Shown one piece after another: positions 9,982 through 26,920 of a DNA stretch of 64,000 nt. Within the stretch, counting starts at the first letter, position 1, and each line of letters opens with the position of its first letter. The stretch lies in contig OZ242180.1 in NCBI GenBank assembly GCA_965205485.1, forward strand, positions 2,720,001 through 2,784,000. Direction: 5' to 3'. This stretch comes from Candidatus Latescibacterota bacterium (GTDB lineage: Bacteria > Latescibacterota > UBA2968 > GCA-2709665). The notes under the pieces are model-generated. The model was not told where the DNA came from and made no database searches. It was given only the letters and a program-made list of their open reading frames with translations. A program made the position numbers and the translations under genes.

Positions 9982-10005
9982 GTAGGGGCGACCGGCCGGT
10001 CGCCC
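9982..10005 (+). repeat. GTAG-type REP palindrome (representative copy)
   Basis: GTAGGGGCGACCGGCCGGTCGCCC; relatives at 11680, 11801, 12331, 12381, 13458, 35150, 35321, 38160, 58259. Confidence 0.85.
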
Positions 10006-10374
10006 GTATTTGAAAGGATGGTTTCAAGAGGCCCGGGAATTTGGCTCCGGGCCTTTTTTGATGAGGAAGGAAGAAGGCAGAAGGAAAAAGGAAGAGGATC
10101 CCGCGTTCCCGCACGGCTTCTGCAGGTTTCCGGTTATTTGCATTCGATTTTCTTCTCCGCAAGGTCGACGGTGCTTCGAATTGCGGCTCGTGCAAGGTGA
10201 GCTTGTAATTGAGAGTGTCTCGAGACGTGGTCATTGAGCTTGTCGAAATGCCCGTGTTACGCTACACTATCGCGATGTCTCTCGACACCCTTCGCCGACT
10301 CCACCACGGTTTCTCTTTTCTTCCTTCTTCCTTCTTCCTTTTTCCTTTCTCACCATTTGTGGAGGATCGTCGCT

Positions 10375-11238
10375 ATGTCCAGATGGTTACCCATACTCGT
10401 GACGCTGGCCGTCACCGGCACGTCATTCGCTCAGAGGGATTTTTCGGCGGTCGAGATCAGGTCCACCAGACTGACCGACAGCGTCTATATGCTTGAAGGC
10501 AGCGGAGGCAACATCGGCGTGTCCGTGGGCCCGGACGGCGTCCTGATTGTCGACGATCAGTTCGCGCCGCTGGCTGAAAAGATCCGCGCCGCCATCGGCG
10601 AGTTGGGTGGGGGAGCCCCGACCTTCGTCCTGAATACGCACTACCATGGCGATCATACCGGCGGGAACGCGTATTTTGGAGAGGAAGGCGTCATCGTCGC
10701 GCACCGGAACGTCCGCAAACGCCTGGCGGCCAGACGTGTCAACGACAGGCCGTTACCCGAAGCCGCCCTGCCGGAAATCACATTCGATGGCGGACTGTCG
10801 ATTCATTTCAACGGCGAAGAACTGCGCGTGGTCCACTTTCCGAACGCTCACACGGACGGCGACGGCGTGGTGTTCTTTACCGGATCCAACGTCGTCCACA
10901 CCGGAGACCTCTTCTTCAACGGCAGATTTCCGTACATCGACCTTCGCGGTGGCGGAGACGTTCAGGGTTACATCGAAGCCGTGCGGTCTCTCCTGAAACA
11001 AATCCCGCGGGATGCGCGTATAATCCCCGGTCACGGCCCGCTCGCCGTCCCGGACGATCTGAGGATTGCGCTTGAGATGCTGGAAACGTGCACGAACCTT
11101 GTCAAGACGTCCATCGCGGCCGGAAAGACGCTGGAGGAAATCCAGGCCGCCGGCGTGCCCGAGAGATGGCAGTCGTGGGGCCAGGGTTGGATGAGTACCG
11201 ACCGCTGGCTCTCGATCGTCTACAACAGCTACAAATAA
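10375..11238 (+). CDS. MBL-fold metallo-hydrolase, secreted
   Basis: THYHGDHTGGN, HTDGD, HTGD, PGHG; signal peptide. Confidence 0.9.
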   Translation: MSRWLPILVTLAVTGTSFAQRDFSAVEIRSTRLTDSVYMLEGSGGNIGVSVGPDGVLIVDDQFAPLAEKIRAAIGELGGGAPTFVLNTHYHGDHTGGNAYFGEEGVIVAHRNVRKRLAARRVNDRPLPEAALPEITFDGGLSIHFNGEELRVVHFPNAHTDGDGVVFFTGSNVVHTGDLFFNGRFPYIDLRGGGDVQGYIEAVRSLLKQIPRDARIIPGHGPLAVPDDLRIALEMLETCTNLVKTSIAAGKTLEEIQAAGVPERWQSWGQGWMSTDRWLSIVYNSYK

Positions 11239-11308
11239 CCAGGATTCATCAAAACGGCCGACGCGAGATACGGCCGCAAGGCGTCCATTTTTCTGAGGAG
11301 GCACACCG

Positions 11309-11647
11309 ATGATTATGACCACCACACCGGGTATCGAAGGCAACGATGTGACCACCACACCGGGTATCATCCGTGATTACAGGGGCATCGTCACCGGCGA
11401 GGCGATCCTCGGTGCGAACATCTTCAAGGACTTCTTCGCCGGCATTCGCGACATTGTTGGCGGGCGATCCGCGGCGTACGAAAAGGAACTGAAGCAAGCC
11501 CGCGAGATCGCATTTTCGGAGATGGAGGAAGCTGCCAGGCAGGAGGGCGCCAACGCCGTCGTGGGCATCGACCTGGACTATGAAGTCGTTGGGGATGGCA
11601 GCATGCTCATGGTCTCGGTCAGCGGCACGGCCGTGACAACCGACTGA
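11309..11647 (+). CDS. YbjQ/UPF0145 family protein
   Basis: [38 protein letters not shown]. Confidence 0.9.
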
Positions 11648-11913
11648 CCGGCGCCGCCGATGAGGAAGCCGGTGTGAGGGTGGGGCGGACATTCCTGTCT
11701 GCCCACGTATGCCAGGCCGAAACATCGGGGTCCTGTGTCCGGACATACGCCGGGTCCTGTGGAAACCGCGCAATTGATCGGACTGGCGCCTCAGGCCTGC
11801 TGGGGCGACCCTCCGGTCGCCCTTGAATTGTCATCGCTTCTTGCATCGGTTACGGAAATCCGCTATGATTTAATGAATTCATCGTTGAAACCTATTCACC
11901 TCGAGAACGGCCA

Positions 11914-12276
11914 ATGGGCGCGACTTACGTTGATGTAACCATCCGCAACCCCGCGGATCCGGAACGTTATTGGACCGGGAAATTTCTCGTCGATACAGGC
12001 GCATTCGACTCGCTTGTACCCAGGGCTCGGCTCGATGCGATCGGACTCACGCCAAGGGGCCGCCGCGAATATGTACTTGCGGATGGAAAGCCCATTGCCA
12101 TGGACATAACAATTGCGGAACTGGAGTTTGAAGGAGAAGTCGTCGGCGGGACAATCGTGTACGGGGACGAAGGCGCCGAACCGTTGCTCGGTGTGACCGC
12201 ACTGGAGTCCGGCGGATTCGAGGTCGACCCTCGCAATGAACAGCTCAAGCGGCTGCCGGCCGTTTTGTTGAAGTGA
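11914..12276 (+). CDS. Clan AA (retropepsin-like) aspartic protease
   Basis: FLVDTGA, PLLGVTALES. Confidence 0.85.
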   Translation: MGATYVDVTIRNPADPERYWTGKFLVDTGAFDSLVPRARLDAIGLTPRGRREYVLADGKPIAMDITIAELEFEGEVVGGTIVYGDEGAEPLLGVTALESGGFEVDPRNEQLKRLPAVLLK

Positions 12277-12423
12277 TGCAGTGTCTCCATGCGCTGCAAC
12301 ATGGCTGATGAATGGTAGTCGACGCAAAGTGGGCAACCACAAGGGTTGCCCCTACCAAATCATCCCGATGCGCAGTTTCCGAAGGGGCGACCAGCCGGTC
12401 GCCCCTTCGACTTTATTCTACGC

Positions 12424-12457
12424 TGTCGCAATACCTGCGACAATCCCTTCTTACGTT
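12424..12457 (+). promoter_or_regulatory. Palindromic operator plus -10 upstream of the WYL gene
   Basis: TGTCGCA-ATACC-TGCGACA then 9 nt then TACGTT. Confidence 0.7.
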
Positions 12458-12474
12458 TATGTGGAGGGTTTCAG

Positions 12475-13446
12475 ATGGAACGCACAATGACCCGCGCCGA
12501 ACGTCTAAAGGCGATCGAGACTTATCTCTATCAATCGGCGGGCGGCAAGAAGGCCACGGACATCGCCTCGCGGTTCGCCGTACACCGAAGTACGGTGTAC
12601 CGGGACATTCAGTCGCTGGGCGAATCCGGGTCGCCGATATGGGAGGACAACGGGCAGTTCGGCGTGTTGAAGGAACGATATCTGACCACCGTCCGTGTCA
12701 ATCTGCACGAGGCCCTGGCGCTCTACCTGGCCGCTCGCCTGCTCTCTGCGCACAGCGACGAACACAATCCGCACGTCGTCTCTGCGCTCGAAAAGCTCGC
12801 AAGCGCAATGCCGGAGTCCATCGGCGAACACATCAACCGAACGGCCGCGGTTGCCGACAGGCGCAGGCCCGATCGCGATCACATCCGCATTCTGGAAACG
12901 CTCACGCGCGCCTGGTCCGAACGCAGGCAGGCGCGTATCGTCTACCACAACCCACAGACCGGCGAAACCACCGATCGTACCGTAGATCCCTACTTCATCG
13001 AGCCTTCGCCCGTGGGATACGCCTGCTACGTCATCGGTTACGACCATTTGCGGCAGGACATCCGAGAGTTCAAAGTGGAGCGAATTGAACGGGCGACGCT
13101 GCTGGAGACAAGATTCAAGACGCGGGTTGGCTTCGATCCGTACGAATTCCTCGAGCACTCGTGGGGCATCATGGGCGGTAACGAGGTCGTGGACGTCGTA
13201 CTCCGGTTTTCGGAGAAGGTCGCGTACCGCGTTCGGGAATCGGACTGGCCGGGGGTGGTGGACGTGACGGACGAGCCCGACGGCGGCTGCCGGCTGCGGC
13301 TCAGGGTGAAGCACACGCTCGAGATGAAGCCGTGGATCCGAGGCTGGGGGCCGGAGTGCGAGGTGCTGGCGCCGGAGGAGCTGAGAAACGAGATCGCCGA
13401 GGATATGATCAAGGCGGGGAGTGTGTATGAATCAGGATCCGTCTGA
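12475..13446 (+). CDS. HTH-WYL-WCX transcriptional regulator
   Basis: HTH (DIASRFAVHRSTVYRDIQSL), WYL core (RTVDPY..YVIGYDHLRQDIREFKVERI), WCX (EMKPWIRGWGPECEVLAPEELR); RBS GGAGG. Confidence 0.92.
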   Translation: MERTMTRAERLKAIETYLYQSAGGKKATDIASRFAVHRSTVYRDIQSLGESGSPIWEDNGQFGVLKERYLTTVRVNLHEALALYLAARLLSAHSDEHNPHVVSALEKLASAMPESIGEHINRTAAVADRRRPDRDHIRILETLTRAWSERRQARIVYHNPQTGETTDRTVDPYFIEPSPVGYACYVIGYDHLRQDIREFKVERIERATLLETRFKTRVGFDPYEFLEHSWGIMGGNEVVDVVLRFSEKVAYRVRESDWPGVVDVTDEPDGGCRLRLRVKHTLEMKPWIRGWGPECEVLAPEELRNEIAEDMIKAGSVYESGSV

Positions 13447-13687
13447 GATCAGAGACAGTAGGGGCGACCGGCCGGTCGCCCGCACAAAAACAACGCCAGC
13501 GCGAGGTTTCGGTTGTGGGCGGCCCTCCTATCTCTTCCGTCTTCGCCTCTTGCTGGCGGCCGGGGATTTGTTGGGTGCTACGATCCGTACTTCCCCATGC
13601 GCCGCCGGTTGACTTCCCTCTGATTGTCTGACCCGCATTTCGATAAACGGCTGTGAATTCCAACTTCTGTTGCACAGCCGCAACCTC

Positions 13688-13722
13688 TGTGACGCAAAAT
13701 GCGACATTTTTCACCATAAAAT
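13688..13722 (+). promoter_or_regulatory. Degenerate WYL-type site plus -10
   Basis: TGTGACGCAAAA-TGCGACA then 10 nt then TAAAAT; one perfect half-site. Confidence 0.5.
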
Positions 13723-13747
13723 CAACAAATAGGACGAAGAATTCATC

Positions 13748-14443
13748 ATGAGTTCAACAATATATCCGTATATTGTACTCTCACGAACAACGGCACTGAA
13801 TGGCAGAACACCAAACTGGTTTGGGAACAATCAAGTTAAGGATGCCCGCATTGGCGACATCAATAGTGTGGGAATGGAGGACAGTTTGACGAGAGCCGAA
13901 ATCATCGCGCGTCGCCGCGAGTTCGAGATCCCAGGATACAAACACAAGTACAAGACGCTTGCAGACGTCGGGTTTGACGGCGAGTGGGTTACGCCATACC
14001 AGATCGTGTCGAGTTCCGAGACGGGTCCGGTACTGGTCGCACACTACTGGCTGGATGCCCCACAAGTCAATAGACATCGCCAGGTGCTGAAGGAGCACGG
14101 CTGGCTGCCGGGTATTCCCTTCAACAAAGTACTGACGCTGGCCCTTGAGCGGGCGAACCTGACCCGCGAGGACATCTATGTCACGCAAGCGTTTCATCTG
14201 TTGCCGTACAAGCAGTGGCCGCCGTTCCGTATACGACACATCGATGAATCGTTTGACAGAATCACACGGCACGAGTGCGCGGGTCGGACGGTCATCGCAC
14301 TCGGTACGGTCGCGCAACGCGCCTGTCGCCGCGCCGGCGTCGAGGCCATCGAATGTATCAGCCCAAGCGCTCGCCTGAGTTGGGAGTACAAGGTGGAAGA
14401 ACTCGCTAAGGCGCTGAAGACCGCGTTGGTGCGGATCGGATGA
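13748..14443 (+). CDS. Hypothetical protein with UDG-superfamily-like C-terminal motifs
   Basis: REDIYVTQAFH, VIALGTVA, ISPSAR (HPSxR-like); start may be 13874. Confidence 0.5.
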   Translation: MSSTIYPYIVLSRTTALNGRTPNWFGNNQVKDARIGDINSVGMEDSLTRAEIIARRREFEIPGYKHKYKTLADVGFDGEWVTPYQIVSSSETGPVLVAHYWLDAPQVNRHRQVLKEHGWLPGIPFNKVLTLALERANLTREDIYVTQAFHLLPYKQWPPFRIRHIDESFDRITRHECAGRTVIALGTVAQRACRRAGVEAIECISPSARLSWEYKVEELAKALKTALVRIG

Positions 14444-14688
14444 GACGCCGGATGACACAGACAATCGTGACGACAGTTACGAACCGGTCGAGCAGCCTAA
14501 GGGTTGTGATGGCGCCGGCGACTGTTCTGATGCCCTGACGAGATCCTTGTAGATGGCCGAGAAGTTGCACATCGGACGGCATTCAAAAGCTCAAGCCGTA
14601 AACCGATGCCTGTCACATCTCCTGCTTTTCTGTTTTTCGGACGTCTTCGATGCCTGTCAACATCGTTTTTGCTTTTGGCTGTTCGCGG

Positions 14689-14802
14689 ATCGCTTCCGTT
14701 CACTTCGGTGGGGGAGCGGATTGAAACGTAGGATCGGTCGGCTCGAAGGTCGTCACCGGCCCCAAAATCTCCCCGCACTTCGGTGGGGGGCGTGGATTGA
14801 AC
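14689..14802 (+). CRISPR. Degenerate orphan CRISPR-like mini-array (2 repeats, 1 spacer)
   Basis: ATCGCTTCCGTTCACTTCGGTGGGGGAGCGGATTGAAAC, a ~39-nt spacer, ATCTCCCCGCACTTCGGTGGGGGGCGTGGATTGAAC; TTCG-loop hairpins and ATTGAA(A)C ends; no cas genes in window. Confidence 0.55.
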
Positions 14803-14914
14803 TTCGCGGCGGGACCCAGGTAGTACTGCGCGCCAATTCAACCTATACATTCGGGTCCAGCCTGTGATGTTCGGACCGGGTATTGATCCAATTTCATGAT
14901 GAAATGAGGCGACT

Positions 14915-15541
14915 ATGGATATGACCGAAATCTCCAGTCTGCTGGCACTGACGCTCGGGGTCGGCTGGGCTAGCGGGATCAATCTGTATGCAACCGTGTT
15001 TACTTTGGGGCTCGCCGGTTTAACAGGATACGTGGAATTACCTGATCAGCTCGATGCGATCCAGAATCCCTGGGTACTTGTCGCCGCAGGTTTGATGTAC
15101 CTTGTGGAGTTCGTCGCCGACAAGATCCCTGGATTCGACACGGTTTGGGATGTCATCCACACCTTCATTCGCGTTCCGGCGGGTGCTCTGATGGCTTTGG
15201 GGGCAACGGGTGATCACGGCTTGGCCCTGGATATGACTGGTGGACTGGCCGGCGGTATCATGGCCCTGAATAGCCACGCGACCAAGATGGGTTCGCGCGC
15301 GGCCATCAATACGAGCCCTGAGCCGTTTTCCAACTGGGCTGCATCAATCACAGAGGACATATCCGTCGTGGGCGGCTTGTGGCTGGCACTGAACCACCCC
15401 TGGACGTTTCTCGGTTTGCTGGTGTTGTTCGTCGTGCTCTCCGTTTTTTTGTTGCGGATAATCTGGTCAACTCTTAAAGCGGCGATTCGGAAAGTACGAT
15501 CCCGATGGCGTTCCGATCTCGCCCATAGTAGGGGAGAATGA
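14915..15541 (+). CDS. DUF4126 family membrane protein
   Basis: GWASGINLYAT, EFVADKIPGFDTVWD, NTSPEPFSNWAASITED. Confidence 0.85.
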   Translation: MDMTEISSLLALTLGVGWASGINLYATVFTLGLAGLTGYVELPDQLDAIQNPWVLVAAGLMYLVEFVADKIPGFDTVWDVIHTFIRVPAGALMALGATGDHGLALDMTGGLAGGIMALNSHATKMGSRAAINTSPEPFSNWAASITEDISVVGGLWLALNHPWTFLGLLVLFVVLSVFLLRIIWSTLKAAIRKVRSRWRSDLAHSRGE

Positions 15542-15643
15542 GCTTGCCGTTCCAATACGTGATTTGTCCCCCCGAGAATTCTCGACCTACCGCTGAGCAT
15601 CAACTGGCCCGCCCGCCGGCCCGGCCATAGGGACGCTTACTGG

Positions 15644-15663
15644 GAATCTTCCATCAGAACAAG
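15644..15663 (+). repeat. 20-bp island motif, copy A
   Basis: GAATCTTCCATCAGAACAAG. Confidence 0.85.
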
Positions 15664-15676
15664 GATTGAGACGATT

Positions 15677-15853
15677 ATGCGAAATAGACAAGACACCGCT
15701 GGTATGCTGGTCTGGCATCCCGACGGCAAGCCCTACTCGCCGGCCGACTACGAAAAGGCGGGCATGCCGGTGCCCACGCCCGAGCAGCTCGCCCACTGGG
15801 CCGAGACCGACCGGTGGATCGCCGAACTCAAAGCCAAGTACGACACCGATTAG
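15677..15853 (+). CDS. 58-aa hypothetical protein, paralog A
   Basis: MRNRQDTAGMLVWHPDGKPYSPADYEKAGMPVPTPEQLAHWAETDRWIAELKAKYDTD; 39/58 identical to 19003-19179. Confidence 0.75.
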   Translation: MRNRQDTAGMLVWHPDGKPYSPADYEKAGMPVPTPEQLAHWAETDRWIAELKAKYDTD

Positions 15854-15901
15854 CCCCCCTCCGTCGTCAACTCAACCACGTAGTAGTATTCCACTCGCTC
15901 A

Positions 15902-15921
15902 GAATCTTCCATCAGAAAAGG
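15902..15921 (+). repeat. 20-bp island motif, copy B
   Basis: GAATCTTCCATCAGAAAAGG. Confidence 0.8.
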
Positions 15922-15959
15922 GATAGAAATGCATGCCGGCAATGGCCGGTGCCTCGTGA

Positions 15960-15979
15960 GAGTCTTCCACCAGAACAAG
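15960..15979 (+). repeat. 20-bp island motif, copy C
   Basis: GAGTCTTCCACCAGAACAAG. Confidence 0.8.
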
Positions 15980-16101
15980 TGGAGACGTTGTTACACCGGC
16001 GGCAATAATTACCGACATGCGTGTCGGGGGACCTGGTCTATGAGGATCCCAACGACAGTCCATTCTATTGCAGTGAGCCTCGATCGAAGTGAAGGAATTG
16101 A

Positions 16102-17433
16102 ATGACCGCAGCCGGCAGGGAGAACGACCTAGCGCCCGTTGAGCGATGTCTTTCCATCGGCACCTGGAACATGGATCACTGGAAACGGACCACGCAGCAG
16201 CGCCGGGACGCATGGGATTACCTCAAAACAAACCGCAATGCTGACGTGATGCTGCTTCAGGAAAGCGTCGCGCCGGCTGGTATCCCCCGTACCAGTTTCG
16301 TGCACCGAGAGATCGCTGGCCGGCGGCCATGGGGATCATCGGTTGTGGCGTTCGCGGATGACGTGGAAATCGAGGAGGTCGATGCCGTACGCACCCGCTA
16401 CGGCGCCACGAGATACAGCTTGCTGGGAAGCCTTCCGGGTTCCTTAATCGTCGCTCGAATCCACGTGCCTGAAATCGGCCCTATTACGTGTGTGAGCGTC
16501 TATGGTACGATAGATGGCGTCTATGCGCAGACAACGATGTTTCGTGTTATTGCCGACCTGGTTCCGCTGTTTGACTCGGGCGACGGCAGGCGGGTCATTC
16601 TGGGCGGCGACTTCAATATTACAACAGCGGCGTCTCCCGAAACGCCCGAACGGCCTCGATACCGCGCCATCTTGTCTGGCATCGAATCACTCGGACTCGT
16701 CAATCTCGCCGAGACGGCAAAGTGTCGCCCGGACTCCATGCCTGGTTGTCCGTGCAGTGCCGATGATTGCCGCCACATCCGAACGTTCGGCGACAATCCT
16801 GGCACGCAGCTCGATTGGCTGTACGCCACGGAGGAACTCGCACGCAGGTGCACACGCCTGTCCGTCGATCACACCGTTATGGGTACAATGAGCGACCACG
16901 CGCCGCTCGTTGCCGAGTTTCGAGTCCCCCCGCTCGAGGGCAGCGGGGTTGTCGATCCGGATTCATTCGTCCGGGAACTTGCGGTCCGCACTGGTTCCGA
17001 GTGTGCTCGAATCGCGGAAGAACTGATCGCGTGGGCGCACTGGAAGCACGCGGAGCTGGATCGATGGGACCGGAAGGCCGTGTCCTTTGACCGATTGCCG
17101 ACGCGTGATAGCGATCCGCCGGAAATCTGGTTCCAGCTCGATAAAGGACGTCCGGGTCGAGAGAGGAATCTGTTGCAATGGACCTTCAGCATCAAGGCAC
17201 ACGGGCGCGTCGTCGTGCAATTTCGATGGTTGACCGGCCCGTTCAAACAGATGAGTGCGCGGGAAGAACTCTGGTCAGATTTGTGCCGGATTGAAGGCGT
17301 GTCTCTGGACAAGAATCTGAATAGCAAACCGAGCTTTTCCTTAAAGGCCCTGGCGCAGCCTGATCGCCTCGAGCAGTTTCAGCAGGTGTTTTCCAATATG
17401 ATTGACAAAACGCTGCAGGGAAACGCGGATTGA
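16102..17433 (+). CDS. Endonuclease/exonuclease/phosphatase (EEP) family protein with extra C-terminal domain
   Basis: IGTWNM, DVMLLQE, GGDFN, QLDWLY, SDHAPL, plus about 165 aa C-terminal domain. Confidence 0.85.
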   Translation: MTAAGRENDLAPVERCLSIGTWNMDHWKRTTQQRRDAWDYLKTNRNADVMLLQESVAPAGIPRTSFVHREIAGRRPWGSSVVAFADDVEIEEVDAVRTRYGATRYSLLGSLPGSLIVARIHVPEIGPITCVSVYGTIDGVYAQTTMFRVIADLVPLFDSGDGRRVILGGDFNITTAASPETPERPRYRAILSGIESLGLVNLAETAKCRPDSMPGCPCSADDCRHIRTFGDNPGTQLDWLYATEELARRCTRLSVDHTVMGTMSDHAPLVAEFRVPPLEGSGVVDPDSFVRELAVRTGSECARIAEELIAWAHWKHAELDRWDRKAVSFDRLPTRDSDPPEIWFQLDKGRPGRERNLLQWTFSIKAHGRVVVQFRWLTGPFKQMSAREELWSDLCRIEGVSLDKNLNSKPSFSLKALAQPDRLEQFQQVFSNMIDKTLQGNAD

Positions 17434-17502
17434 GACTGAACAGGACCCTTGAATCGTCGTCGTGAATGATCCGAGGAATACAAACTATGTGAAGGAGGTT
17501 CC

Positions 17503-18093
17503 GTGGACACGAGTGGTTTATCCGAATTCAGCCGTGATCTGGAGTCCTTGATCGGCAAGCCGACCGATCTGCGCCCGTTCGTTTGTGAAGGTTCTCCACT
17601 TGAATGCGAAGTGTTCCTCGTAGGTTTCAATCCTGCGAGCCCCATGTCCGTAGACTTTTGGGATTTCTGGAAGGACAGCTATGGATTCAACAAATGCGCC
17701 TGGTTCGAGAAGTACAAGTACGAGCGACGGAACCGCCCGCTGAAGCGTGGAAGGACGAGAAGGAATGAAGTAAGCAACACGCGTAGAACCATAGATGTCG
17801 TCGTCGAAAGTGCCAGACCCGTCAAATGCCTCGAAACGAACATCTACGCGAATGCGACTGAGCAGAAATCGGACCTGAAAGCAAAAGACAGAGTCACGGC
17901 GCCCTTCGACTATCTCCTGCACGAGGTCGCACCTAAGCTGGTGATTGCCCACGGCAGGGATGCCGCGAGTTACTTGCAAGGGCAGGACCTACCGTGCGAG
18001 CTTAAGTGTGTTCCACATTTCGCACTCGGTTGGTACGAGCAAAGCGCGCGAGATCTGGGTGTGTGTATTCGCAGGTATTGCGAAGGAAAGTAA
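17503..18093 (+). CDS. Uracil-DNA-glycosylase-superfamily-like protein
   Basis: VFLVGFNPA, LETNIY, PKLVIAHGRDA, VPHF; RBS AAGGAGG before GTG. Confidence 0.65.
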   Translation: MDTSGLSEFSRDLESLIGKPTDLRPFVCEGSPLECEVFLVGFNPASPMSVDFWDFWKDSYGFNKCAWFEKYKYERRNRPLKRGRTRRNEVSNTRRTIDVVVESARPVKCLETNIYANATEQKSDLKAKDRVTAPFDYLLHEVAPKLVIAHGRDAASYLQGQDLPCELKCVPHFALGWYEQSARDLGVCIRRYCEGK

Positions 18094-18167
18094 CCGCACC
18101 TCGCCGCGCAGACGTCAACTGATTGGATTTTTGGTTCAGGCTGATAGCCAATAGCTTGCTTCTCTGT

Positions 18168-18201
18168 TGTCGCAATTCCTGCGACAGATCCGGTTTATCT
18201 T
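18168..18201 (+). promoter_or_regulatory. Second palindromic WYL-type operator plus -10
   Basis: TGTCGCA-ATTCC-TGCGACA then 9 nt then TATCTT; 18/19 identical to 12424-12442. Confidence 0.7.
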
Positions 18202-18357
18202 GATATGGGTTGAGCAATATTGGTGAAACATCCGATGAGATGTACGGCTCTGTTCTTGGCGGGCAGGAACAGGACGGGAACGATTTGATGCCGCACGCTT
18301 CCGCATGACCGTTTTCGGGTACAGTCTCGAAGGTACAACCGGGTGGAGGGCTGAGCG

Positions 18358-18906
18358 ATGCCAAATGGAGGATCCGACTGTTGCGGGACCTGCTGGTTCA
18401 ATCGAAGGAATCAGGGCGAGCGCGACTGGTTGGCGCACGCAGACGAGAGTATACCGCCCTTTTGCGAGATCAGGGACATCGAGGTGGAGGATCCGTTCTA
18501 CACCTATTGCGCGAACCATCCTCATCGCCGGCCCGATCGCGACACCATTCCCATCGGGCCGGTGATGCGCCACGGCGGATGGAAAGAGGAACGGCGCGTC
18601 GAGGACGGTCAAACCATTTTATCCAGTTGCGAGAATCCTCGTTACGTCTGGAAACCCTCGCCGGATTCGGAAGAGATTCGCCAACACCTGCTGAATCTGC
18701 TGAATAGCATTTTCGAGCACATGTCAAGGGACCGGTATCCGATAGGCGCCGGTCTGGGAGAGACGATTATCCGGCAACTTGGCGAGTTTCGGGAGGAACG
18801 GTCGGTGAAGTATCTCGAATGGATACGCGAGAATCTCGAAGATTCGCTGGATTTCATGGCAGTCGCTGCCAACGAGGCGCTGGGCAAGATCCAGGAAAAT
18901 GAATAA
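18358..18906 (+). CDS. Hypothetical protein, Cys-rich N-terminus and helical (HEAT-like) C-terminus
   Basis: MPNGGSDCCGTCWFN...FCEIR...YTYCANHPH; RBS GGAGG. Confidence 0.65.
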   Translation: MPNGGSDCCGTCWFNRRNQGERDWLAHADESIPPFCEIRDIEVEDPFYTYCANHPHRRPDRDTIPIGPVMRHGGWKEERRVEDGQTILSSCENPRYVWKPSPDSEEIRQHLLNLLNSIFEHMSRDRYPIGAGLGETIIRQLGEFREERSVKYLEWIRENLEDSLDFMAVAANEALGKIQENE

Positions 18907-18969
18907 GCAGTGTACCCGGACGACAACACAGACCTTTTCGGAGAGATCGTCGACGGCTCGTTCCGCTGA

Positions 18970-18989
18970 GAATCTTCCTTCAGAACAAG
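18970..18989 (+). repeat. 20-bp island motif, copy D
   Basis: GAATCTTCCTTCAGAACAAG. Confidence 0.85.
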
Positions 18990-19002
18990 GATCGAAACAG
19001 CT

Positions 19003-19179
19003 ATGCGAAACAGACAAGATAGCGCAGGCATGCAGTGCTGGCACCCTGACGGCACGCCCTTCTCTGACGCCGACTACCGCCGGGCAAACCTCCCTGTGCC
19101 CACACCTGCGCAGTTGGCACACTGGGCCGAAATGAAACGGCTCATCGATGAGATGAAAGCACGCCACGACACCGAGTAA
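19003..19179 (+). CDS. 58-aa hypothetical protein, paralog B
   Basis: MRNRQDSAGMQCWHPDGTPFSDADYRRANLPVPTPAQLAHWAEMKRLIDEMKARHDTE. Confidence 0.75.
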   Translation: MRNRQDSAGMQCWHPDGTPFSDADYRRANLPVPTPAQLAHWAEMKRLIDEMKARHDTE

Positions 19180-19188
19180 GCCCGGCGA

Positions 19189-19208
19189 GAATCTTCCGTT
19201 AGAACAAG
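19189..19208 (+). repeat. 20-bp island motif, copy E
   Basis: GAATCTTCCGTTAGAACAAG, 10 nt before the DUF6361 ATG. Confidence 0.85.
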
Positions 19209-19218
19209 AGAGGACACA

Positions 19219-20430
19219 ATGCAGGCGACGTTGACCTGGCTCGATCTGACGGCAAGCGACCGGGACAAGATGCGGCGGGTGCTGGACCTGTTCAATGAGC
19301 AGGGCACCCTCGATGAGATGGGACTCGGAAACCTTCGAGACGCGATTTCTGACGCGCTGTTTCCCGGGACCTCTTATATCCAGACGCGGCTGCGCTATGT
19401 ACTCTTCATTCCCTGGATCTACCAGAGGCTGGAGGCGCGGCGCGTCAGGAGCGTGGATGTAGCACAGGCCGCGCGCAAGGCGGAAGTCGATCTAATCGGG
19501 CGGCTTGAGCAGGGCCAAGACAAGAAAGGCATCATCGGCGTACTCGCTGGCCATTCGCTAGTACGGTTGCCGAGTTCCATATACTGGAGTGCACTCACTC
19601 GATGGGACGTCTTCAGGCCTCAACAGAGCCAGAGTTGGTATCACACGAACTTCGATACCCTGTTGGAAGGTCGCAGCGACGTGGGGCGGGCAGACGATCC
19701 GGGCGTGATCTGGAGCCGAGATGCACACTGGAATCCGCGTATGCCAGAGCCACCGGACGGCTTTCCTGAGGGAGCATCCTTTGCGTTGACCCGCGACGAG
19801 GCGGACTTTCTTTGTAGCCGCCTGGAGGAAACGTGTGCCGGCACGCTTCTGGCGTGGCTGGCCCGCACTGGAACCGATTCGCCCGCGAAAGATTCCTGGA
19901 AGGATCCGGACGCTCTCCGTGCACCTCAGGATATCCTTGATACCGTCGAACTGGCACGGCGTTTTTCACTACATGTCGAGGGCATGCCGCTGCTCTACAA
20001 TCTGGTTGTGGCGGAACACCGCCGCGAGATGCTTGACTCTGACGATGAGGGCGAATTGATCAGCTCGTACCGTACAGAGCTCACTGAGTGGGCGGACTCT
20101 GAGGCGGAAGAAGCTCAACCATTCGATCCGGATCCGCTGTGGGAATTGGTAGCCCGACGCGGTGGGCGCACTCCACATCATCAACGACTCTTCATTCAAG
20201 ATTGGTCTCGACAGATTGCCAAGTTGGATGCCGACATGATCGCCGACGACCCACGGCTGCGGGCGATGGTAACCGAACGCGAGTTAAACCTGAAGGGAGC
20301 GCGCGCACGACTTGGAAACCGTAGTCGCCTGATGGAATGGACGCCAGGGGTAGGTGTTGGTCGGATGGACTTTCGCTGGGTTCGCGTCCGGCAGTTTCTT
20401 ACGGACCTTCACAGGGGGTTGGCCGCCTGA
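19219..20430 (+). CDS. DUF6361-like protein (first gene of Azaca-like operon)
   Basis: LTWLD...GTLDEMGLGNLRDAISDALFPGTSYIQTRLRYVLFIPW, RLPSSIYWSAL, MDFRW. Confidence 0.75.
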   Translation: MQATLTWLDLTASDRDKMRRVLDLFNEQGTLDEMGLGNLRDAISDALFPGTSYIQTRLRYVLFIPWIYQRLEARRVRSVDVAQAARKAEVDLIGRLEQGQDKKGIIGVLAGHSLVRLPSSIYWSALTRWDVFRPQQSQSWYHTNFDTLLEGRSDVGRADDPGVIWSRDAHWNPRMPEPPDGFPEGASFALTRDEADFLCSRLEETCAGTLLAWLARTGTDSPAKDSWKDPDALRAPQDILDTVELARRFSLHVEGMPLLYNLVVAEHRREMLDSDDEGELISSYRTELTEWADSEAEEAQPFDPDPLWELVARRGGRTPHHQRLFIQDWSRQIAKLDADMIADDPRLRAMVTERELNLKGARARLGNRSRLMEWTPGVGVGRMDFRWVRVRQFLTDLHRGLAA

Positions 20431-22265
20431 TGTTATCGCCCGATACGCGATCCACCGCCTTCGAATTGCTACGCCCGCCCTGCGGGTACCAACTCGACCT
20501 CGCGGTGCTTTCCACTTACACGCTCGATCTTGAAACACTGCTCGTACTCCCCTTGTCGGTACTTGCACATTCCGATGGTGGACTGGATGAGTTATTGGCC
20601 GATCCGCTCTGTCTGCAACAGGCAATCCGGGATGCGGGTGACCGCATTCATGCTTTCGTGGACGAATCCGGAATCGCGATTCCACGCAACGCGCGATCGC
20701 TGTACTCGATGCTTGAGTCGAGCGTCCACGCCGTACGTGCCCCGAATGGCGGCGCATTCCACCCAAAGGTGTGGGTGGCTCGATTCGTTGCCTCTGATGA
20801 GGATGCTGAAGACCTATTGCGCGTTGCGATCCTGTCGCGAAACCTGACCTTTGACCGTTCCTGGGACATCGCACTGACGAGCGAGGCGTCCATCCGGGGC
20901 CGTCGACGTGTCGCCGTGAGCAGGCCGCTACGCGACTTTCTGCTGACATTGCCGCAACTCTCAACCAGCCCCGTACACGAGAACGTCGTAGCACGTCTCA
21001 AGGCATTAGCCGAACAGGTTTCGCGAACCGCTTTCCCTGCCCCTGACGGCTTCGCCGATCCGGTCGCGTTCCATTTACTCGGATTGCAGAAACGCCGCCG
21101 TCTGTGGCGCCCGCCGTCTACCGGGTATCGAACACTCGCAGTATCGCCGTTCATCAGCCGGACCGGACTGGAGGTGGTCGGGGAGTTGAGCGGTAACGAC
21201 CGGATGCTGGTGAGCCGACAGGAGGAACTCGACAGACTCGGTCAGGATGCGCTGGCTGAATGGAACGATGTATTCGTCCTTTCAGATGCCGCGCATGGGG
21301 AATCCGACGAAAGTCTGGCTGATGAAAACCAACCCGCAGCTGGTGGAATTGATCGCCCGTCGGGGTTGCATGCCAAGATGATCGCCGTGGAGCATGGTTG
21401 GGACGTTACCTGGTACGTGGGTTCCGCGAACCTGACCTCGTCTGCATTAAGCGGCAGCAACGTCGAAATGGTGGCGTCCGTCACCGGCAGGAAGGGACGC
21501 AAGGGGGGCCACAGCGGTCATGGTATCGATCGGTTCCTTGACGCCGGATTTCGGAAGCTGTGTGTGAAGTATGAGAGAGTCGAACCGGAGAAAGAAGACC
21601 CAGCCATCACCGATTCGCGAAATCGTCTTGAGGCGGCACGGGACGCCCTGTTGAGGACTGACCTGTGCGTGAATTGCGTTTCCGCAGGTGACGCCTGGAC
21701 CTTGACGATTGACGGAGACGGTATTCCGTGCGCCGACGATGTCGAGGTCGTAACTTGGCCCGTCTCCGTCGCCGAAGATCAAGCCTTGCTGCTGGAGAAG
21801 GCGGTCAGTTGGAGGTTGCCCGTTGCGCGTCTTACGGCATTCATCGCCTTTCGGCTGAGCGTCGACGTCGGTGGCGTGGACGACGTCAGAATGACCCTTA
21901 GTCTACCCGCTCAAGGAATCCCGGAGGATCGCATGCATCACGTGCTCCGGGGCCTGTTGGACAGTCCGGAGAAGTTCCTTCGATTCCTTCGGGCATTGCT
22001 CGGCGGGCTCGATTCCGTTTTTGGCTGGGCGCAGGAACCCAGGCAGGGAGACGCGGCCTTCGCCTGGGGAATCGGGGAGGGTGGCGAGACATTGCTCGAC
22101 GACCTTGTCCGCACTGCCTCAAGAGACCCCGATCGCCTGAAGCCGGTACGTCGCCTGATCGACGACCTTCGGAAGACGGAAGAAGGGCGCCGTATCGTAC
22201 CTGACGAACTATTCGGTATCTGGACGGCAGTCGAGGAGGCACTCGCACCGGAGCCACGACTATGA
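20430..22265 (+). CDS. Phospholipase D-family nuclease-like protein
   Basis: Two HxK motifs (FHPKVW..SRNLT; LHAKM..GSANLT); TGATG coupling to the upstream gene. Confidence 0.8.
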   Translation: MLSPDTRSTAFELLRPPCGYQLDLAVLSTYTLDLETLLVLPLSVLAHSDGGLDELLADPLCLQQAIRDAGDRIHAFVDESGIAIPRNARSLYSMLESSVHAVRAPNGGAFHPKVWVARFVASDEDAEDLLRVAILSRNLTFDRSWDIALTSEASIRGRRRVAVSRPLRDFLLTLPQLSTSPVHENVVARLKALAEQVSRTAFPAPDGFADPVAFHLLGLQKRRRLWRPPSTGYRTLAVSPFISRTGLEVVGELSGNDRMLVSRQEELDRLGQDALAEWNDVFVLSDAAHGESDESLADENQPAAGGIDRPSGLHAKMIAVEHGWDVTWYVGSANLTSSALSGSNVEMVASVTGRKGRKGGHSGHGIDRFLDAGFRKLCVKYERVEPEKEDPAITDSRNRLEAARDALLRTDLCVNCVSAGDAWTLTIDGDGIPCADDVEVVTWPVSVAEDQALLLEKAVSWRLPVARLTAFIAFRLSVDVGGVDDVRMTLSLPAQGIPEDRMHHVLRGLLDSPEKFLRFLRALLGGLDSVFGWAQEPRQGDAAFAWGIGEGGETLLDDLVRTASRDPDRLKPVRRLIDDLRKTEEGRRIVPDELFGIWTAVEEALAPEPRL

Positions 22266-25200
22266 AGCGTCCTTGCGTCAGCGCGAGTCTGAAACCGCTA
22301 AAGTCCTTTCAGCGTCGTACCGTGGAGCACGCCTTCCACCGCCTGTTCACTGCGGAAGACGGAACCGGGCGTTTTCTGGTGGCTGACGAGGTAGGCCTCG
22401 GGAAGACGCTGGTCGCCCGGGGTATCATTGCCCGTACCATCGATCACCTCTGGACCGACGTCGAACGGATCGACATTGTCTACATTTGCAGTAACGCCAG
22501 CATCGCGCGTGCCAATCTGCCAAAGCTCAGGATCGGAGGCGCCGAAGAACGGTCGTTCGCATTAGCGACCCGTCTCACGATGTTGGCCACGCAACTGGCG
22601 CGTAAGGAAGGTGAACCTGGTCTGATCGACAGCAAGCTGAACTTCGTCAGCTTCACGCCGGGCACGTCCTTTAACATGGGGCAATCCGCAGGGCAGCGCC
22701 AGGAGCGGGAGGTGCTGTTTCAACTGCTCGATCCGCTGACAGAGCGGCGCACGGCGCTTATGAACTTCCTGCAGGGATGGATTACGGACAGAGATGACTG
22801 GCGCTGGTACCTTAAGAACCGCCCCCGCCCTATCGAAGACATGATACGTCGAAGGTTTGAGAATGCATTTTGCAAGCGCCACGGTCTGGAGGACAGATTT
22901 CAAGGCATCCTTGGTGCGTTCCGCCGCTACCGGGTAAATTGGCCTGACGATGTGCGGTACCAGCGGGACCGGCTCATATCCGAGTTGCGCCGCCTGCTGG
23001 CCGGAGTGTGTGTCCGCGCCCTCGAGCCGGATCTCGTGATCATGGACGAGTTCCAGCGCTTCAAGTCACTGCTCGACACAAGTGGCGTAGAGCGAGACCC
23101 TGCAGCGCACCTGGCTCACGAGTTGTTCCAGGCCAAGGCGCATGACGGTAAGCGCGTGCGGACGCTCTTGCTCTCCGCGACTCCGTACAAGCTCTACACC
23201 GCAGATGCGGAGATTGAGCAGGAAGACCATTACGAAGACTTTCTGGCAACTACCGAATTCCTCCTCGGCGATGAAGACGGTCGCGTTGAAGAGCTTAAAC
23301 GCCAATTGTCGCGTTTCGGGTCCGCGTTGAAGGGCACGGCGGCCGGAGAACCGGATAAGGCCAAGAGAATCGAACGCGCGAAGCACGAGGTCGAGGTATC
23401 ACTTAAGAACGTGATGGCACGAACCGAGCGTGTCGCAGCCAGTGAAGAGCACGACGCGATGGTGGCGGAGGTGCCGAGCAACGTGACCGTGACCTCAACC
23501 GATGTGCGCCAGTACCTGGCCGCAGATGCCCTGTTTAGGGCTATCGGTGACCGCGATCCGATGCCGTTCTGGAAGTCGGCGCCGTACCTTGCTCATTTCA
23601 TGCACGGTTACAGGTTCAACGAACTACTCGCAGAGGCGATTAAGTCACCGAGAAAGATCGTCGAGGTCTTCCAGCAGCACGAGTCTGCGTTCTTGAAGGC
23701 TGCGACGATTCGCTCCTGGGAGAGCATTGACCCCGGAAACGCGAAGCTGCGTGAGATGGTTGGGGAACTGATCGACGAGGGAATGTGGCGACTTCTCTGG
23801 ATGCCGCCGACGCTTCCGTACTGGCCGCTTGAAGGACCGTTCAAGGGAACGGCACAGGCAACGAAACGCCTGTTGTTCTCTGCATGGAACGTCGTGCCCG
23901 ACGTTGTCAGCGCCGTTCTGAGCTACGAAGCGGAACGTCTGATGACACGTAGTCCACGCGGCCGGATTGAATCCTACGAAAGACTCGTCGAGCAGCAGAG
24001 GCCGCTCTTGAGACTTACGCAGTCGGTAGTCGGTCGACGGTCACGACATCGTCTACTGCTTTTGCTCTTGCCCTGCCTTCCGCTGGCAGATGGGGCCCAT
24101 CCTCTTGATGCGCCGCCCGGCCAGGATCGCCGGGCGTGGGTCCGGTCGCGAGTCGACGAAATTCTTTCTGACACAGAGCTTCCGAACCCAAAGCAAGGTA
24201 ATATCGACGACAGGTGGGAATGGATCGCGCCGCTCCTGATAGATCCTGAACTGCGCGGTTTCCTTCGGGCTTGGGTGAACGGCGGGCTTCCCGGGTTGTC
24301 AGCAAATGAGCGACTACCGCAGCCAAACCCGGAAGTCTTTGGCGCTTACGTAGATGATTTGCTTGACGTCGAATTGCGTACCCTAGGCCGGCGACCACCG
24401 CATCTTGCAGAATTGCTCACCGACGTCGCACTTGGCTCGCCCGCAATACTCGCAGCACGCAGTCTAAGAAATAGGACGAATATCGGCGACGGTACGCGAC
24501 GTCGGCTCGCCGTGATGATTTCACTTGCGTTCTGGAGCCTCTTCAATCAGCCGGCTGTAATCACACTGATGCGTCAACTGGCTTCAGATTCGGCCGAAGC
24601 CAGGAATGAATCAGCCTACTGGCGTCTTGTGCTCGGCTATTGCCGGCAAGGCAACCTGCAAGCAGTACTGGACGAACAATGGCACCTGCTTTGGGACCAG
24701 GAGTCGTGGTCCGGCGACGCCAGCGGCGACGAAACCGCCGAAGGGTGCGCCCGCAAACTCATCCAGGTTGTGCGTCCAATGCGTGCTCGTGTCCATGCAA
24801 GGTTTTTCGAGATTAAGGGTGCAGGAGGAAATGGATCGACGCTTGCAAGTGATGAAGTCCGCCTTCGTACGGCTTTCGCGCTGCGCTTCGGCCACATCAG
24901 CACGGATGAAGGCGTTCACATCAGCCAGGACGCCGTTAGAGACGCCTTCAATAGTCCGTTTCGTCCCTTTGTACTTACCAGTACATCGATTGGGCAGGAA
25001 GGGCTCGATTTTCATCCTTGGTGCCACCGCTTGGTCCACTGGAACCTGCCCGGCAATCCGGTCGATCTCGAACAACGCGAAGGCCGCATCCATCGATACA
25101 AGGGACACGCGATCCGTCGAAATGTCGCTGCCCGCCATGCGCATGACGCGCTGACGTCATGGAGGGCCGGAGACGACATTTGGATACGGATGTTCGAGTT

Positions 25201-25471
25201 AGCCGACCAGGCGGCGCGAGCTTCCGGGGAAAGTGATCTGGTACCTCACTGGATCGCCCCCGGAGATTGCTTGGTACAGCGCCATGTGCCACTCCTGCCA
25301 TACACGACGGAGATCGAGGCGTTCAAACGCCTCAAACGTCAACTCGCGGCCTACCGGGTTGTCTTTGGGCAACCCCGCCAGGAGGAACTCGTTGCGCTGC
25401 TCGACCGATCTGACGTCGACGTCACGAAATTCAAAGAATGGGCGATCGATCTCTCGCCACCAGAGATCTGA
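22262..25471 (+). CDS. SF2 helicase
   Basis: ADEVGLGKT, MDEFQRF, LSATPY, TSIGQEGLDFH, EQREGRIHRY; ATGA overlap. Confidence 0.9.
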   Translation: MKRPCVSASLKPLKSFQRRTVEHAFHRLFTAEDGTGRFLVADEVGLGKTLVARGIIARTIDHLWTDVERIDIVYICSNASIARANLPKLRIGGAEERSFALATRLTMLATQLARKEGEPGLIDSKLNFVSFTPGTSFNMGQSAGQRQEREVLFQLLDPLTERRTALMNFLQGWITDRDDWRWYLKNRPRPIEDMIRRRFENAFCKRHGLEDRFQGILGAFRRYRVNWPDDVRYQRDRLISELRRLLAGVCVRALEPDLVIMDEFQRFKSLLDTSGVERDPAAHLAHELFQAKAHDGKRVRTLLLSATPYKLYTADAEIEQEDHYEDFLATTEFLLGDEDGRVEELKRQLSRFGSALKGTAAGEPDKAKRIERAKHEVEVSLKNVMARTERVAASEEHDAMVAEVPSNVTVTSTDVRQYLAADALFRAIGDRDPMPFWKSAPYLAHFMHGYRFNELLAEAIKSPRKIVEVFQQHESAFLKAATIRSWESIDPGNAKLREMVGELIDEGMWRLLWMPPTLPYWPLEGPFKGTAQATKRLLFSAWNVVPDVVSAVLSYEAERLMTRSPRGRIESYERLVEQQRPLLRLTQSVVGRRSRHRLLLLLLPCLPLADGAHPLDAPPGQDRRAWVRSRVDEILSDTELPNPKQGNIDDRWEWIAPLLIDPELRGFLRAWVNGGLPGLSANERLPQPNPEVFGAYVDDLLDVELRTLGRRPPHLAELLTDVALGSPAILAARSLRNRTNIGDGTRRRLAVMISLAFWSLFNQPAVITLMRQLASDSAEARNESAYWRLVLGYCRQGNLQAVLDEQWHLLWDQESWSGDASGDETAEGCARKLIQVVRPMRARVHARFFEIKGAGGNGSTLASDEVRLRTAFALRFGHISTDEGVHISQDAVRDAFNSPFRPFVLTSTSIGQEGLDFHPWCHRLVHWNLPGNPVDLEQREGRIHRYKGHAIRRNVAARHAHDALTSWRAGDDIWIRMFELADQAARASGESDLVPHWIAPGDCLVQRHVPLLPYTTEIEAFKRLKRQLAAYRVVFGQPRQEELVALLDRSDVDVTKFKEWAIDLSPPEI

Positions 25472-25615
25472 AACGATCAAAAGTAGCTGAGAAGTTTCGG
25501 AATTTGGGCGTTGTGCGGGATTCCATACACGCCATTTGAGACACTAAACGCCCGTCGCGAAGACAAACTCGCTGTTCGATTTCTCCTCACTTCGGAGAGA
25601 GGAGCGAATTGAAAC

Positions 25616-26140
25616 GTGAAGCGCACACGGACACGTGCGATCGTGGGGTCATTCGTCTTCTTCTGGGTCGCGCCGGCTGTCGTTGCCGGCGTCATCCCGT
25701 TCGCGCTGGTCGGCTGGACGATGCAGCCGCCGCTGCTCGGGCTGCCCGGCGAGCGGGTATTGGGAGCCGCGGCCGTCGCGGCGGGTCTGGCCTGCCTGCT
25801 GGACTGCTTCGCCCGTTTCGCCCTCGAGGGTCGTGGCACACCGGCGCCGGTGGCGCAGACCGAAATACTGGTCGCTTCCGGCCTCTATCGGTTCGTGCGA
25901 AACCCGATGTATATCTCCATGTTGATCATCATTTCAGGGCAGACGCTGCTCTTTGGCCAGGCACGGCTGTTGGTTTACGCCGGGGTGGTGTTTGCCGCGT
26001 TCCACCTGAACGTGCTGCTCTATGAGGAGCCGCAACTCCGTCGAAGATTCGGAGGGTCGTACGAGACCTACCGCCTGCACGTGGGTCGCTGGTGGCCACG
26101 CCTGACGCCGTGGCGCGGGTCAGGTACGCCAGGCTGCTGA
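25616..26140 (+). CDS. Isoprenylcysteine carboxyl methyltransferase/PEMT family membrane protein
   Basis: GRGTPAP, GLYRFVRNPMY, YEEPQLRRRFG. Confidence 0.85.
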   Translation: MKRTRTRAIVGSFVFFWVAPAVVAGVIPFALVGWTMQPPLLGLPGERVLGAAAVAAGLACLLDCFARFALEGRGTPAPVAQTEILVASGLYRFVRNPMYISMLIIISGQTLLFGQARLLVYAGVVFAAFHLNVLLYEEPQLRRRFGGSYETYRLHVGRWWPRLTPWRGSGTPGC

Positions 26141-26376
26141 CGACGCCGGCAAATCAGGTGTGACGCTGAACAATGGAAAGAGGCAGCATGTCGGATCGTC
26201 CGCTCGGAAATCAGGTGGCGGTCGTTGACGGTCCGGATCCTGTCCAGGGGGACGTTCTCGAATATGCCTCCAGGATCGTTGCGGCCCCCGTTGTCAGGCT
26301 CACGCCTCATTGGAAATTCGCGCTCCTTTCAGGTTAATACTTCGCAGGACAACGCAACTCATTTTCAAGGAGGAAT

Positions 26377-26808
26377 ATGATGCTCAGGAACATCCTCGCC
26401 GCCGTCGTCGGCTACATTGCCATGGCCGCCGTTCTCTTCGTTCTCTTCTCGCTTCTGTGGCTGACGCTAGGGCCCTCGCGCGCCTTCCAGCCGGGTTCGT
26501 GGGAGGTATCCGGCAGCTGGGCACTCGGCTCACTCGTGCTCGGGCTCGTGGGCGCGTACATCGGCGGACGAGTCTGTGCCAGTGTGGCGCACAATGCCAG
26601 GGCCGCCACGATTCTAATCGCCGTCGTTCTCGTGCTCGGGGTGGTGACGGCCCTGATGCCGGTGGATATGTCGGCCGGACCGCGCCCGGACGACGTGTCG
26701 ATGATGGAGGCGACCGCAGGCGCTCGCCAGCCGGCGTGGTTCAACTGGCTCAACCCACTGATCGGGGTCATGGGCGTCTGGTTCGGATCGCGGAAGTTGC
26801 GCGCGTAG
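26377..26808 (+). CDS. Hypothetical 4-TM membrane protein
   Basis: Hydrophobic segments; RBS AAGGAGG. Confidence 0.7.
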   Translation: MMLRNILAAVVGYIAMAAVLFVLFSLLWLTLGPSRAFQPGSWEVSGSWALGSLVLGLVGAYIGGRVCASVAHNARAATILIAVVLVLGVVTALMPVDMSAGPRPDDVSMMEATAGARQPAWFNWLNPLIGVMGVWFGSRKLRA

Positions 26809-26920
26809 CCGTCCATTTCCGGGGCGGATGAAAGGAATGTGCCGCGTATCGATACGCTGTACGATACGGCGTCGCGAATACGTCTCACGCCGGCTTTGGC
26901 CTGGCTGGTGAGTGTGTCGT

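Follow-up and report, generated by a model that had tools for sequence, protein, structure and literature searches.

Integron cassette arrays contain an adjacent IntI tyrosine recombinase and hairpin attC sites. Degenerate lone CRISPR repeats in cas loci were described by Shmakov et al.; in the accessible part of their report these are standalone units or two-repeat mini-arrays with spacers that often match promoters, and such remnants are proposed as recombination targets for regaining a CRISPR system (10.1101/2023.03.03.530964). The accessible text on CRISIS by Shu et al. places defence genes within the cas operon of a type I locus beside solitary repeats, with one repeat unit targeting the cargo promoter and a requirement for Cascade (10.1101/2024.12.27.630466). 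Here we analysed a 64,000-nt stretch (the window) of contig OZ242180.1 from Candidatus Latescibacterota bacterium. A run of open reading frames (ORFs) in it, all listed on the + strand at 12475-25471, had been read from the letters alone as a single integrated defence island under a WYL regulator (the original prediction). We found that whole genes in this region are separated by lone degenerate CRISPR repeats.

The locus shares degenerate lone repeats in a cas locus with the cases of Shmakov et al., but here 1 to 17 repeats per genome lie between whole shuffled genes and no target was found. Defence genes beside solitary repeats in a type I locus are also a feature of CRISIS; the cargo of the window, however, lies behind the array, the cas genes are missing, no Cascade gene was found, and neither of the two short window spacers, the only ones compared, gave a CRISIS-type promoter match. 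Co-oriented, variable and defence-rich genes parted by a recurring short site make the locus integron-like in outcome. Unlike an integron, it has no adjacent tyrosine recombinase and no attC-like hairpin, and shuffling also occurs off the sites: co-orientation and flush junctions were seen, and the order also breaks elsewhere. Multi-gene arrays punctuated by CRISPR repeats were not found in the literature covered, which included few subscription journals. The architecture is apparently undescribed, whereas its defence system (Azaca) and its type of regulator are known.

Lone CRISPR repeats behind a WYL gene

The explanation that we favour, with a probability of about 0.6, is that the locus is the tail of a WYL-headed type I CRISPR-Cas locus standing without its CRISPR enzymes, and that in this mosaic hotspot of defence genes the decayed CRISPR trailer now provides anchors for recombination and signals for translation. 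Relatives carry cas operons and arrays at this place and this genome has none; lone repeats lie between whole genes, and gene order varies. The whole genome is one contig of 5.1 Mb (97% complete). The same locus was fetched from 14 relatives of the genus and from several more distant genomes. Genus counts given below refer to 15 genomes of one Latescibacterota genus, which are kin, so that the counts are not independent.

The original prediction treated two independent non-coding motifs as regulatory sites. Motif 2 is instead a 37-nt type I-B CRISPR repeat (r1): in relatives (G003, G006, G009, G011, G015, G023 and G030), it makes up arrays of 20-87 units that follow the corresponding WYL gene, mostly after a type I-B Cas1b-cas2-cas4 module. 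Arrays of the same sequence ruled it out as an operator or SOS-type box. The genome contains five degenerate copies, all in this region on the + strand (15636-15672, 15894-15930, 15952-15988, 18962-18998 and 19181-19217), which scored 36-45 bits compared with at most 17.5 elsewhere. The nearest Rfam family, CRISPR-DR7, scored 19.3 bits, under its 37-bit cut-off. A CRISPR-like remnant noticed at 14691-14803 proved to consist of repeats of a second, type I-C family (r2), whose arrays lie behind type I-C systems in G008, G011 and G013. Three degenerate r2 copies are present in the window (+ strand), at 14691-14727, at 14767-14803 after a 39-nt spacer, and at 25579-25615, the end of the Azaca segment. 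r1 and r2 have little in common beyond their last 10 nt. In the same three type I-C genomes, an r2-like repeat lies between cas1 and cas2, its end overlapped by the cas2 start.

The position of the locus is fixed among relatives. A ybjQ-like gene, an aspartyl protease and the WYL gene are followed by a cas operon or by none, and the subtype behind WYL is I-B, I-B Myxan, I-C or absent. Cas genes lay within the fetched stretch in 9 of the 14 relatives; those of G010 are on another contig. In this genome no Cas1, no PF10040 Cas6 and no regular array were found, and tblastn with the relatives' Cas proteins gave no match. The eight degenerate copies, with gaps of 21 nt to 6.4 kb, do not support a functional array. 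Spacers in the r1 and r2 arrays of this genus had medians of 34-38 nt. Neither short window spacer had a convincing target (best local score 13 in the island, only 14-nt matches in the genome). Four r1 copies folded no better than shuffled sequences (z 0.45-1.21 with RNA parameters).

Outside arrays, each of the 15 genus genomes had lone repeats (1-17 per genome), 101 of r1 and 33 of r2, and all 134 were on the same strand. The matrices had been built from the lone copies themselves; at an equal threshold the opposite strand gave no r1 and one r2. Segments between consecutive lone repeats measured at least 150 nt in 91 of 112 cases (under 60 nt, 20; 60-150 nt, 1; 150-350 nt, 27; 350-2000 nt, 30; 2-7 kb, 28; longer, 6). 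A repeat was present in 76 of 138 junctions before + genes and in 9 of 59 before - genes. For several genes the start adjoins a repeat: that of PEMT lies 0 nt past it in 7/7 (three behind r1, four behind r2), that of zacA 1 nt past it in 5/5, and that of the 58-aa family F1 2-5 nt past it in 17 of the 21 copies from 12 genomes. The DUF4126 leader begins directly after r2 here (111 nt) and directly after r1 in G010 (112 nt). Among 19 listed short repeat pairs, eight mixed r1 with r2, five of them with normal spacers of 35-38 nt. Certain ORFs read through a repeat and terminate at a TGA inside it. Azaca occurred in 5/15 genus genomes, each time between repeats. Contigs of another sponge metagenome join the end of the EEP gene to the repeat before the second F1 micro-ORF, bypassing UDG2 and the Cys-rich gene, and also join r1 to the DUF4126 leader (likeness 85, probably from relatives). 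Two genomes of the same family, G015 and G016, also had lone repeats between genes. In the other family, G023, G029 and G039 had ordinary arrays with few or no lone repeats after them, and G024 had none in the stretch examined.

In the window, the two neighbouring r2 copies are followed by a DUF4126 membrane protein gene (14915-15541, +), which the original prediction omitted. F1 copy 1 (15677-15853, +) starts 4 nt past the r1 repeat at 15636-15672; the next two r1 copies are separated by a shortened 21-nt spacer. The EEP nuclease gene (16102-17433, +) has its stop codon within a repeat-like 3' end. F1 copy 2 (19003-19179, +) lies between two r1 repeats with 4 nt and 1 nt to spare. The repeat behind it, at 19181-19217, has a 3' end that is now purine-rich and lies 1 nt before zacA. 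A PEMT/ICMT-like methyltransferase gene (25616-26140, +) has its start codon immediately 3' of the last r2 repeat.

Under the favoured explanation, successive CRISPR-Cas systems would have replaced one another behind the WYL gene and their arrays would have collapsed. Leftover repeats would act as short homology anchors for ordinary recombination with relatives' DNA, the anchor being presumably the whole repeat within a family and the shared last 10 nt between families. Genes would be swapped, duplicated and lost with junctions at repeats, and other microhomologies would act likewise elsewhere in the region. Genes flush with a repeat may take its purine-rich 3' end as ribosome-binding site (RBS), and some may take the TGA within the repeat as stop. 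CRISPR repeats would then have a part beyond the making of guide RNA, as joints and translation signals in a genus-wide variable gene array, and lone repeats would be a cheap marker for candidate defence genes. The candidates marked here are two families with a uracil-DNA glycosylase (UDG) fold, an EEP fusion, the Cys-rich protein and the 58-aa family, beside Azaca, GmrSD, Nmad3 and NucS relatives.

Repeats as proposed recombination joints

Homologous flanks were compared for pairs of repeats; both flanks were shared in 11, only the upstream flank in 24 and only the downstream flank in 62. An alignment end was located at most 10 nt away for 54 of 84 repeats, and one crossover (G010/G014) fell within a repeat, away from its edge. 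The repeats are frequent, exact joints, though other joints exist. Ordinary microhomology acts in the region too, as in the database protein P0229, an EEP-PEMT fusion joined by a short match inside both genes. Among the joints listed from contigs of two runs with this strain, none was a repeat joint.

Several results weigh against the favoured explanation. Sharing of one flank only was also seen at repeat-free gene starts (47/116) and ends (62/95), and of 1109 unique alignment ends in non-coding DNA, only 63 fell at repeats. Alignment ends were enriched 6.9-fold at r1; for ordinary gene boundaries and REP-like palindromes the enrichment was about 3-fold. Masking inflates the r1 value, and the unmasked r2 gave 1.6-fold. 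Conservation of adjacency across repeat junctions was not significantly lower (0.34 vs 0.50, p=0.07; 31 vs 51 adjacencies), nor was it for + strand pairs only (0.39 vs 0.42, p=0.42). Since repeat-free junctions shuffle too, the repeats are not needed for shuffling, and a dedicated cassette machine is unproven. Flush junctions may represent few independent events because they are confined to few gene families. Before F1, identity was 83% for the repeats and 40% for four-fold sites of the gene (18 copies), the best hint of renewal or selection, which would be more than passive reuse. With regard to a defence hotspot, the products of the UDG, EEP, Cys-rich and F1 genes are candidates, and of four plasmid homologues of UDG2 examined none lay in an annotated defence cluster. 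The UDG and EEP cargo may have a role in repair instead.

Alternative explanations

A more active part for the repeats appears doubtful to us. They would be attachment sites of an integron-like capture, by which genes of phages and mobile elements, such as F1, enter as oversized spacers, are expressed from the repeat RBS and are exchanged between strains and subtypes at the shared repeat end, giving a library of defences against modified DNA. A dedicated machine, in which Cas1-Cas2 or an F1-like helper captures genes as oversized spacers with exchange at the repeat 3' edge, is unlikely. It would account for base-exact starts behind two unrelated repeat families, for F1 filling the gap between two repeats in up to four copies per genome, for F1 homologues in other phyla that lie without repeats in a prophage head module or beside an integrase, and for the apparent renewal or selection of repeats before F1. 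However, intact arrays of the genus contain no gene-sized spacer between perfect repeats (longest spacer 53 nt), the large gaps of the G003 array carry transposase-like ORFs, and the cassettes sit at the old end of arrays. The G010/G014 crossover, moreover, is inside the repeat instead of at its edge, shuffling is equally frequent without repeats, and no cas1 was found here. If capture did need Cas1-Cas2, adaptive spacer uptake would be linked to gene acquisition. At the other extreme, the repeats may be inert scars, left where unrelated events inserted genes in or beside decaying arrays, and take no further part. The null result of the adjacency test is as expected from this, and repeats before PEMT, zacA and F27 diverge about as quickly as synonymous sites (0.78 vs 0.80, 0.69 vs 0.62 and 0.76 vs 0.87, respectively). 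Mixed-family pairs whose spacers are normal, and an identical gene edge following different repeats, nevertheless require repeat joins, and the repeats are biased in strand and orientation. Inert scars are quite improbable.

Cas6 or Cas5c cuts near the repeat 3' end, and such a cut could sever the RBS from the gene; alternatively, mini-arrays could guide Cascade to cargo promoters, so that cargo is switched on when Cas is lost or inhibited. The purine-rich core of the repeat, 92% conserved before flush genes and 83% elsewhere (24 vs 67 repeats), is in line with RNA signals of this kind, as is a G015 mini-array before the cas operon with a spacer that resembles upstream DNA. But this genome yielded neither cas6 nor a Cascade gene, the two short spacers lack a convincing target in island or genome, and the 3' handle is lost before zacA and is kept no better before flush genes (0.83 vs 0.82). 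We consider RNA signals very unlikely. The arrangement of the original prediction, a single integrated island whose genes WYL would co-regulate by means of two operator motifs, is hardly tenable. The architecture of the WYL protein agrees with it, as does a BrxR-box-like palindrome with a 5-nt spacer that also precedes the Cys-rich gene (9 cases). Yet motif 2 is a CRISPR repeat, neither integrase nor tRNA is nearby, the neighbours vary among genomes, and the run of palindrome and Cys-rich gene stands before zacA only in G000 and G006 of the five Azaca-bearing genomes.

The G015 mini-array (L047) consists of two repeats between WYL and the first cas gene, and mini-arrays occupy the same place in G023 and G039. 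Its spacer resembles the DNA just upstream, like a guide that autoregulates cas. At the array end of G030 (L052:2430-2790, - strand), two long segments between degenerate repeats contain tRNA-like sequences, which scored 22.4 bits with the Rfam tRNA model, below the cut-off, and were not found by ARAGORN.

Azaca and other cargo

The DUF6361-PLD-helicase operon of the original prediction was identified by PADLOC as Azaca (ZacABC). ZacA (DUF6361; 19219-20430, E 1.6e-122, residues 1-401), ZacB (PLD nuclease; 20430-22265, E 2.3e-159) and ZacC (superfamily 2 helicase; 22262-25471, 1058 bits) are encoded on the + strand and were matched full length, adjacent and in order. The likeness to known Azaca consists in these three genes, their order and the full-length matches; the window copy differs in lying between two CRISPR repeats, with its start 1 nt after one. 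The two HxK motifs of the PLD type in ZacB are HPK at 111 and HAK at 314, and the Walker motifs of ZacC are DEFQ at 262 and GLGKT, seen in the translation. According to the accessible part of the preprint on Azaca, a homologue cuts T4 DNA and requires all three subunits, T4 DNA is preferred in vitro, and protection against T4 is more than million-fold (10.1101/2025.07.10.664194). By analogy, the Azaca of the window is probably this cutter of modified phage DNA, cutting and the blocking of T-even phages having been shown for the homologue.

The predicted theme of defence against modified DNA agrees with the full-length Azaca match and with the cargo of the relatives' locus, which contains Nmad3, GmrSD (PADLOC HEC-05), a NucS-like PDC-S11 and SRAP. 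ADP-ribosylglycohydrolase, a DUF4011 helicase, toxin-antitoxin pairs, DUF4432, peptidase S51 and asparagine synthase were also annotated there, from 71 and 32 chosen proteins. The individual genes named in the original prediction were all recovered: HTH-WYL-WCX domains in the WYL regulator, two UDG-like ORFs (a Pfam match for 13748-14443, a UDG fold for 17503-18093), an EEP nuclease with catalytic-type motifs, a Cys-rich ORF and twin micro-ORFs of 58 aa that are 67% identical. In comparisons with relatives, dN was below dS for nearly all pairs of the micro-ORFs, the Cys-rich gene, both UDG genes, EEP, WYL and zacA.

UDG1 (13874-14443, +; longest frame from 13748) matched the Pfam UDG family PF03167 with E 2e-5 and occurs in 8 genomes; it was not found in plasmids. 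UDG2 (17503-18093, +) had no Pfam match. Its model (pLDDT 90, from a 64-row alignment) best matched family-4 UDGs (Foldseek E 2e-5; VIA Z 10.1, rmsd 4.2, 147 aligned), and with 817 homologues found the family is widespread. PDB sequence searches with both UDG families gave nothing under E 0.05. In 3/5 genomes UDG2 adjoins an EEP gene, which belongs to one or the other of two families; this neighbourhood fits base excision followed by strand cutting. The UDG-fold proteins would probably excise modified bases, and the EEP nuclease, which is ExoIII/AP-endonuclease-like, would probably nick the abasic sites. For the C-terminal domain of the EEP protein, neither a Pfam match nor a link to the NucS fusion was found. 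The setting, a variable defence region with divergent proteins of the UDG fold, recalls Brig1 and Brig2, and the accessible part of a recent preprint reports that UDG-like defence enzymes act on modified C and T (10.1101/2025.10.29.685425). No Brig entry was among the PDB rows listed, with no Brig sequence included in the comparison; tables of Brig2 homologues in preprint supplements may already list these UDG families. A distant homologue of UDG2 on a Geobacillus plasmid (L099) shares its operon with two thymidylate synthases, a kinase, Nudix and QueA, which suggests base-modification chemistry.

The Cys-rich protein (18358-18906, +) probably has a metal-binding N-terminus and a helical C-terminus. 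It had no Pfam match, and its Atlas matches were unnamed clusters (0.96, 0.94) and a HEAT-like cluster (0.93).

A genome may carry as many as four F1 copies, whose identity to the window copy is 39-86%. The fold predicted for F1 (pLDDT 80) begins with a small hairpin-like part, behind which come a short helix and a long one. Of 68 matches in a profile search, about 45 were short proteins or single domains, and the others were long repeat proteins. Outside the genus, F1 was found in a prophage head module (L065), near an integrase (L064) and by itself (L071), in these three cases with no repeats on its flanks; in L067 it lies between repeats at an array end. No Pfam match, no Atlas match and no viral fold match under E 0.001 was obtained, and the best PDB Z was 3.3. 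The F1 tree, in which most outside rows lack a known context, is too poorly resolved to separate single from repeated capture. Our guess is that F1 is a mobile-element regulator or an anti-defence protein that was captured repeatedly. One locus came from a scan of viral contigs and two from metagenome contigs: L075 is convincing as a cassette, L074 matched over 15 residues, and L076 appears spurious. In P0030 and P0036, F1 is fused behind a domain that by eye resembles a helix-hairpin-helix glycosylase, which Pfam did not confirm. L067 is a 2.7-kb contig labelled Tectimicrobiota with a cassette run laid out nearly as in G011, due to misbinning or transfer.

The WYL regulator and motif 1

The HTH-WYL-WCX regulator (12475-13446, +) heads cas operons in relatives. 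A palindrome with 7-nt arms and a 5-nt spacer lies 32 nt before it (12424-12442) and is likely its operator; palindromes of this form were found 32-37 nt upstream of 12 of 14 WYL genes. A second copy (18168-18186) is about 170 nt upstream of the Cys-rich gene, and none was found before zacA. The genome has six exact copies, two here and four within long open frames elsewhere. The half-site is common to a 3-nt-spaced palindrome with 11 exact and 25 near-exact sites genome-wide, including 13690-13706, probably the site of a global regulator. Both recurring motifs of the original prediction are real, and no further window copy of either passed the scans, but motif 1 is not island-specific.

The accessible part of the BrxR report describes binding to an inverted repeat, split by a 5-bp spacer, ahead of the regulator's own gene (PMC9122601). 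WYL regulators of the BrxR/CapW type share with this one the HTH-WYL-WCX domains and the split inverted repeat. Their arms are 11 bp and those of the window 7 bp, and the WYL gene here would be an orphan that once headed a cas operon, since lost. On this precedent and the conserved palindromes, autoregulation of WYL is likely by analogy; control is plausible only for WYL itself and from the Cys-rich gene onward. The genes that WYL represses would probably be its own and those from the Cys-rich gene to zacABC. A single co-regulated island does not agree with the identity of motif 2 or with gene content and order, which vary among the compared genomes while the position of the locus stays fixed. 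Integration is not borne out either: no tRNA is near the island, the two PF00589 tyrosine recombinases of the genome are about 118 kb and 850 kb away, and GC is 54-60% over the region compared with 60% genome-wide. An Rfam scan of 9000-28000 matched no structured RNA, and scans of the region for promoters (5 vs 5.3, chance level) and terminators (19 vs 12.4) were uninformative.

Neighbouring features

G013 (L042) has tandem WYL genes, with a palindrome before each, ahead of a type I-C operon. GC-rich palindromes of a genome-wide REP-like family are located at 9980-10006, 11797-11823, 12379-12405 and 13456-13482. Downstream of the cargo, CobW-like, Fur-like and metal ABC transporter genes (27402-34848) shift as a block in the variable region of several relatives.

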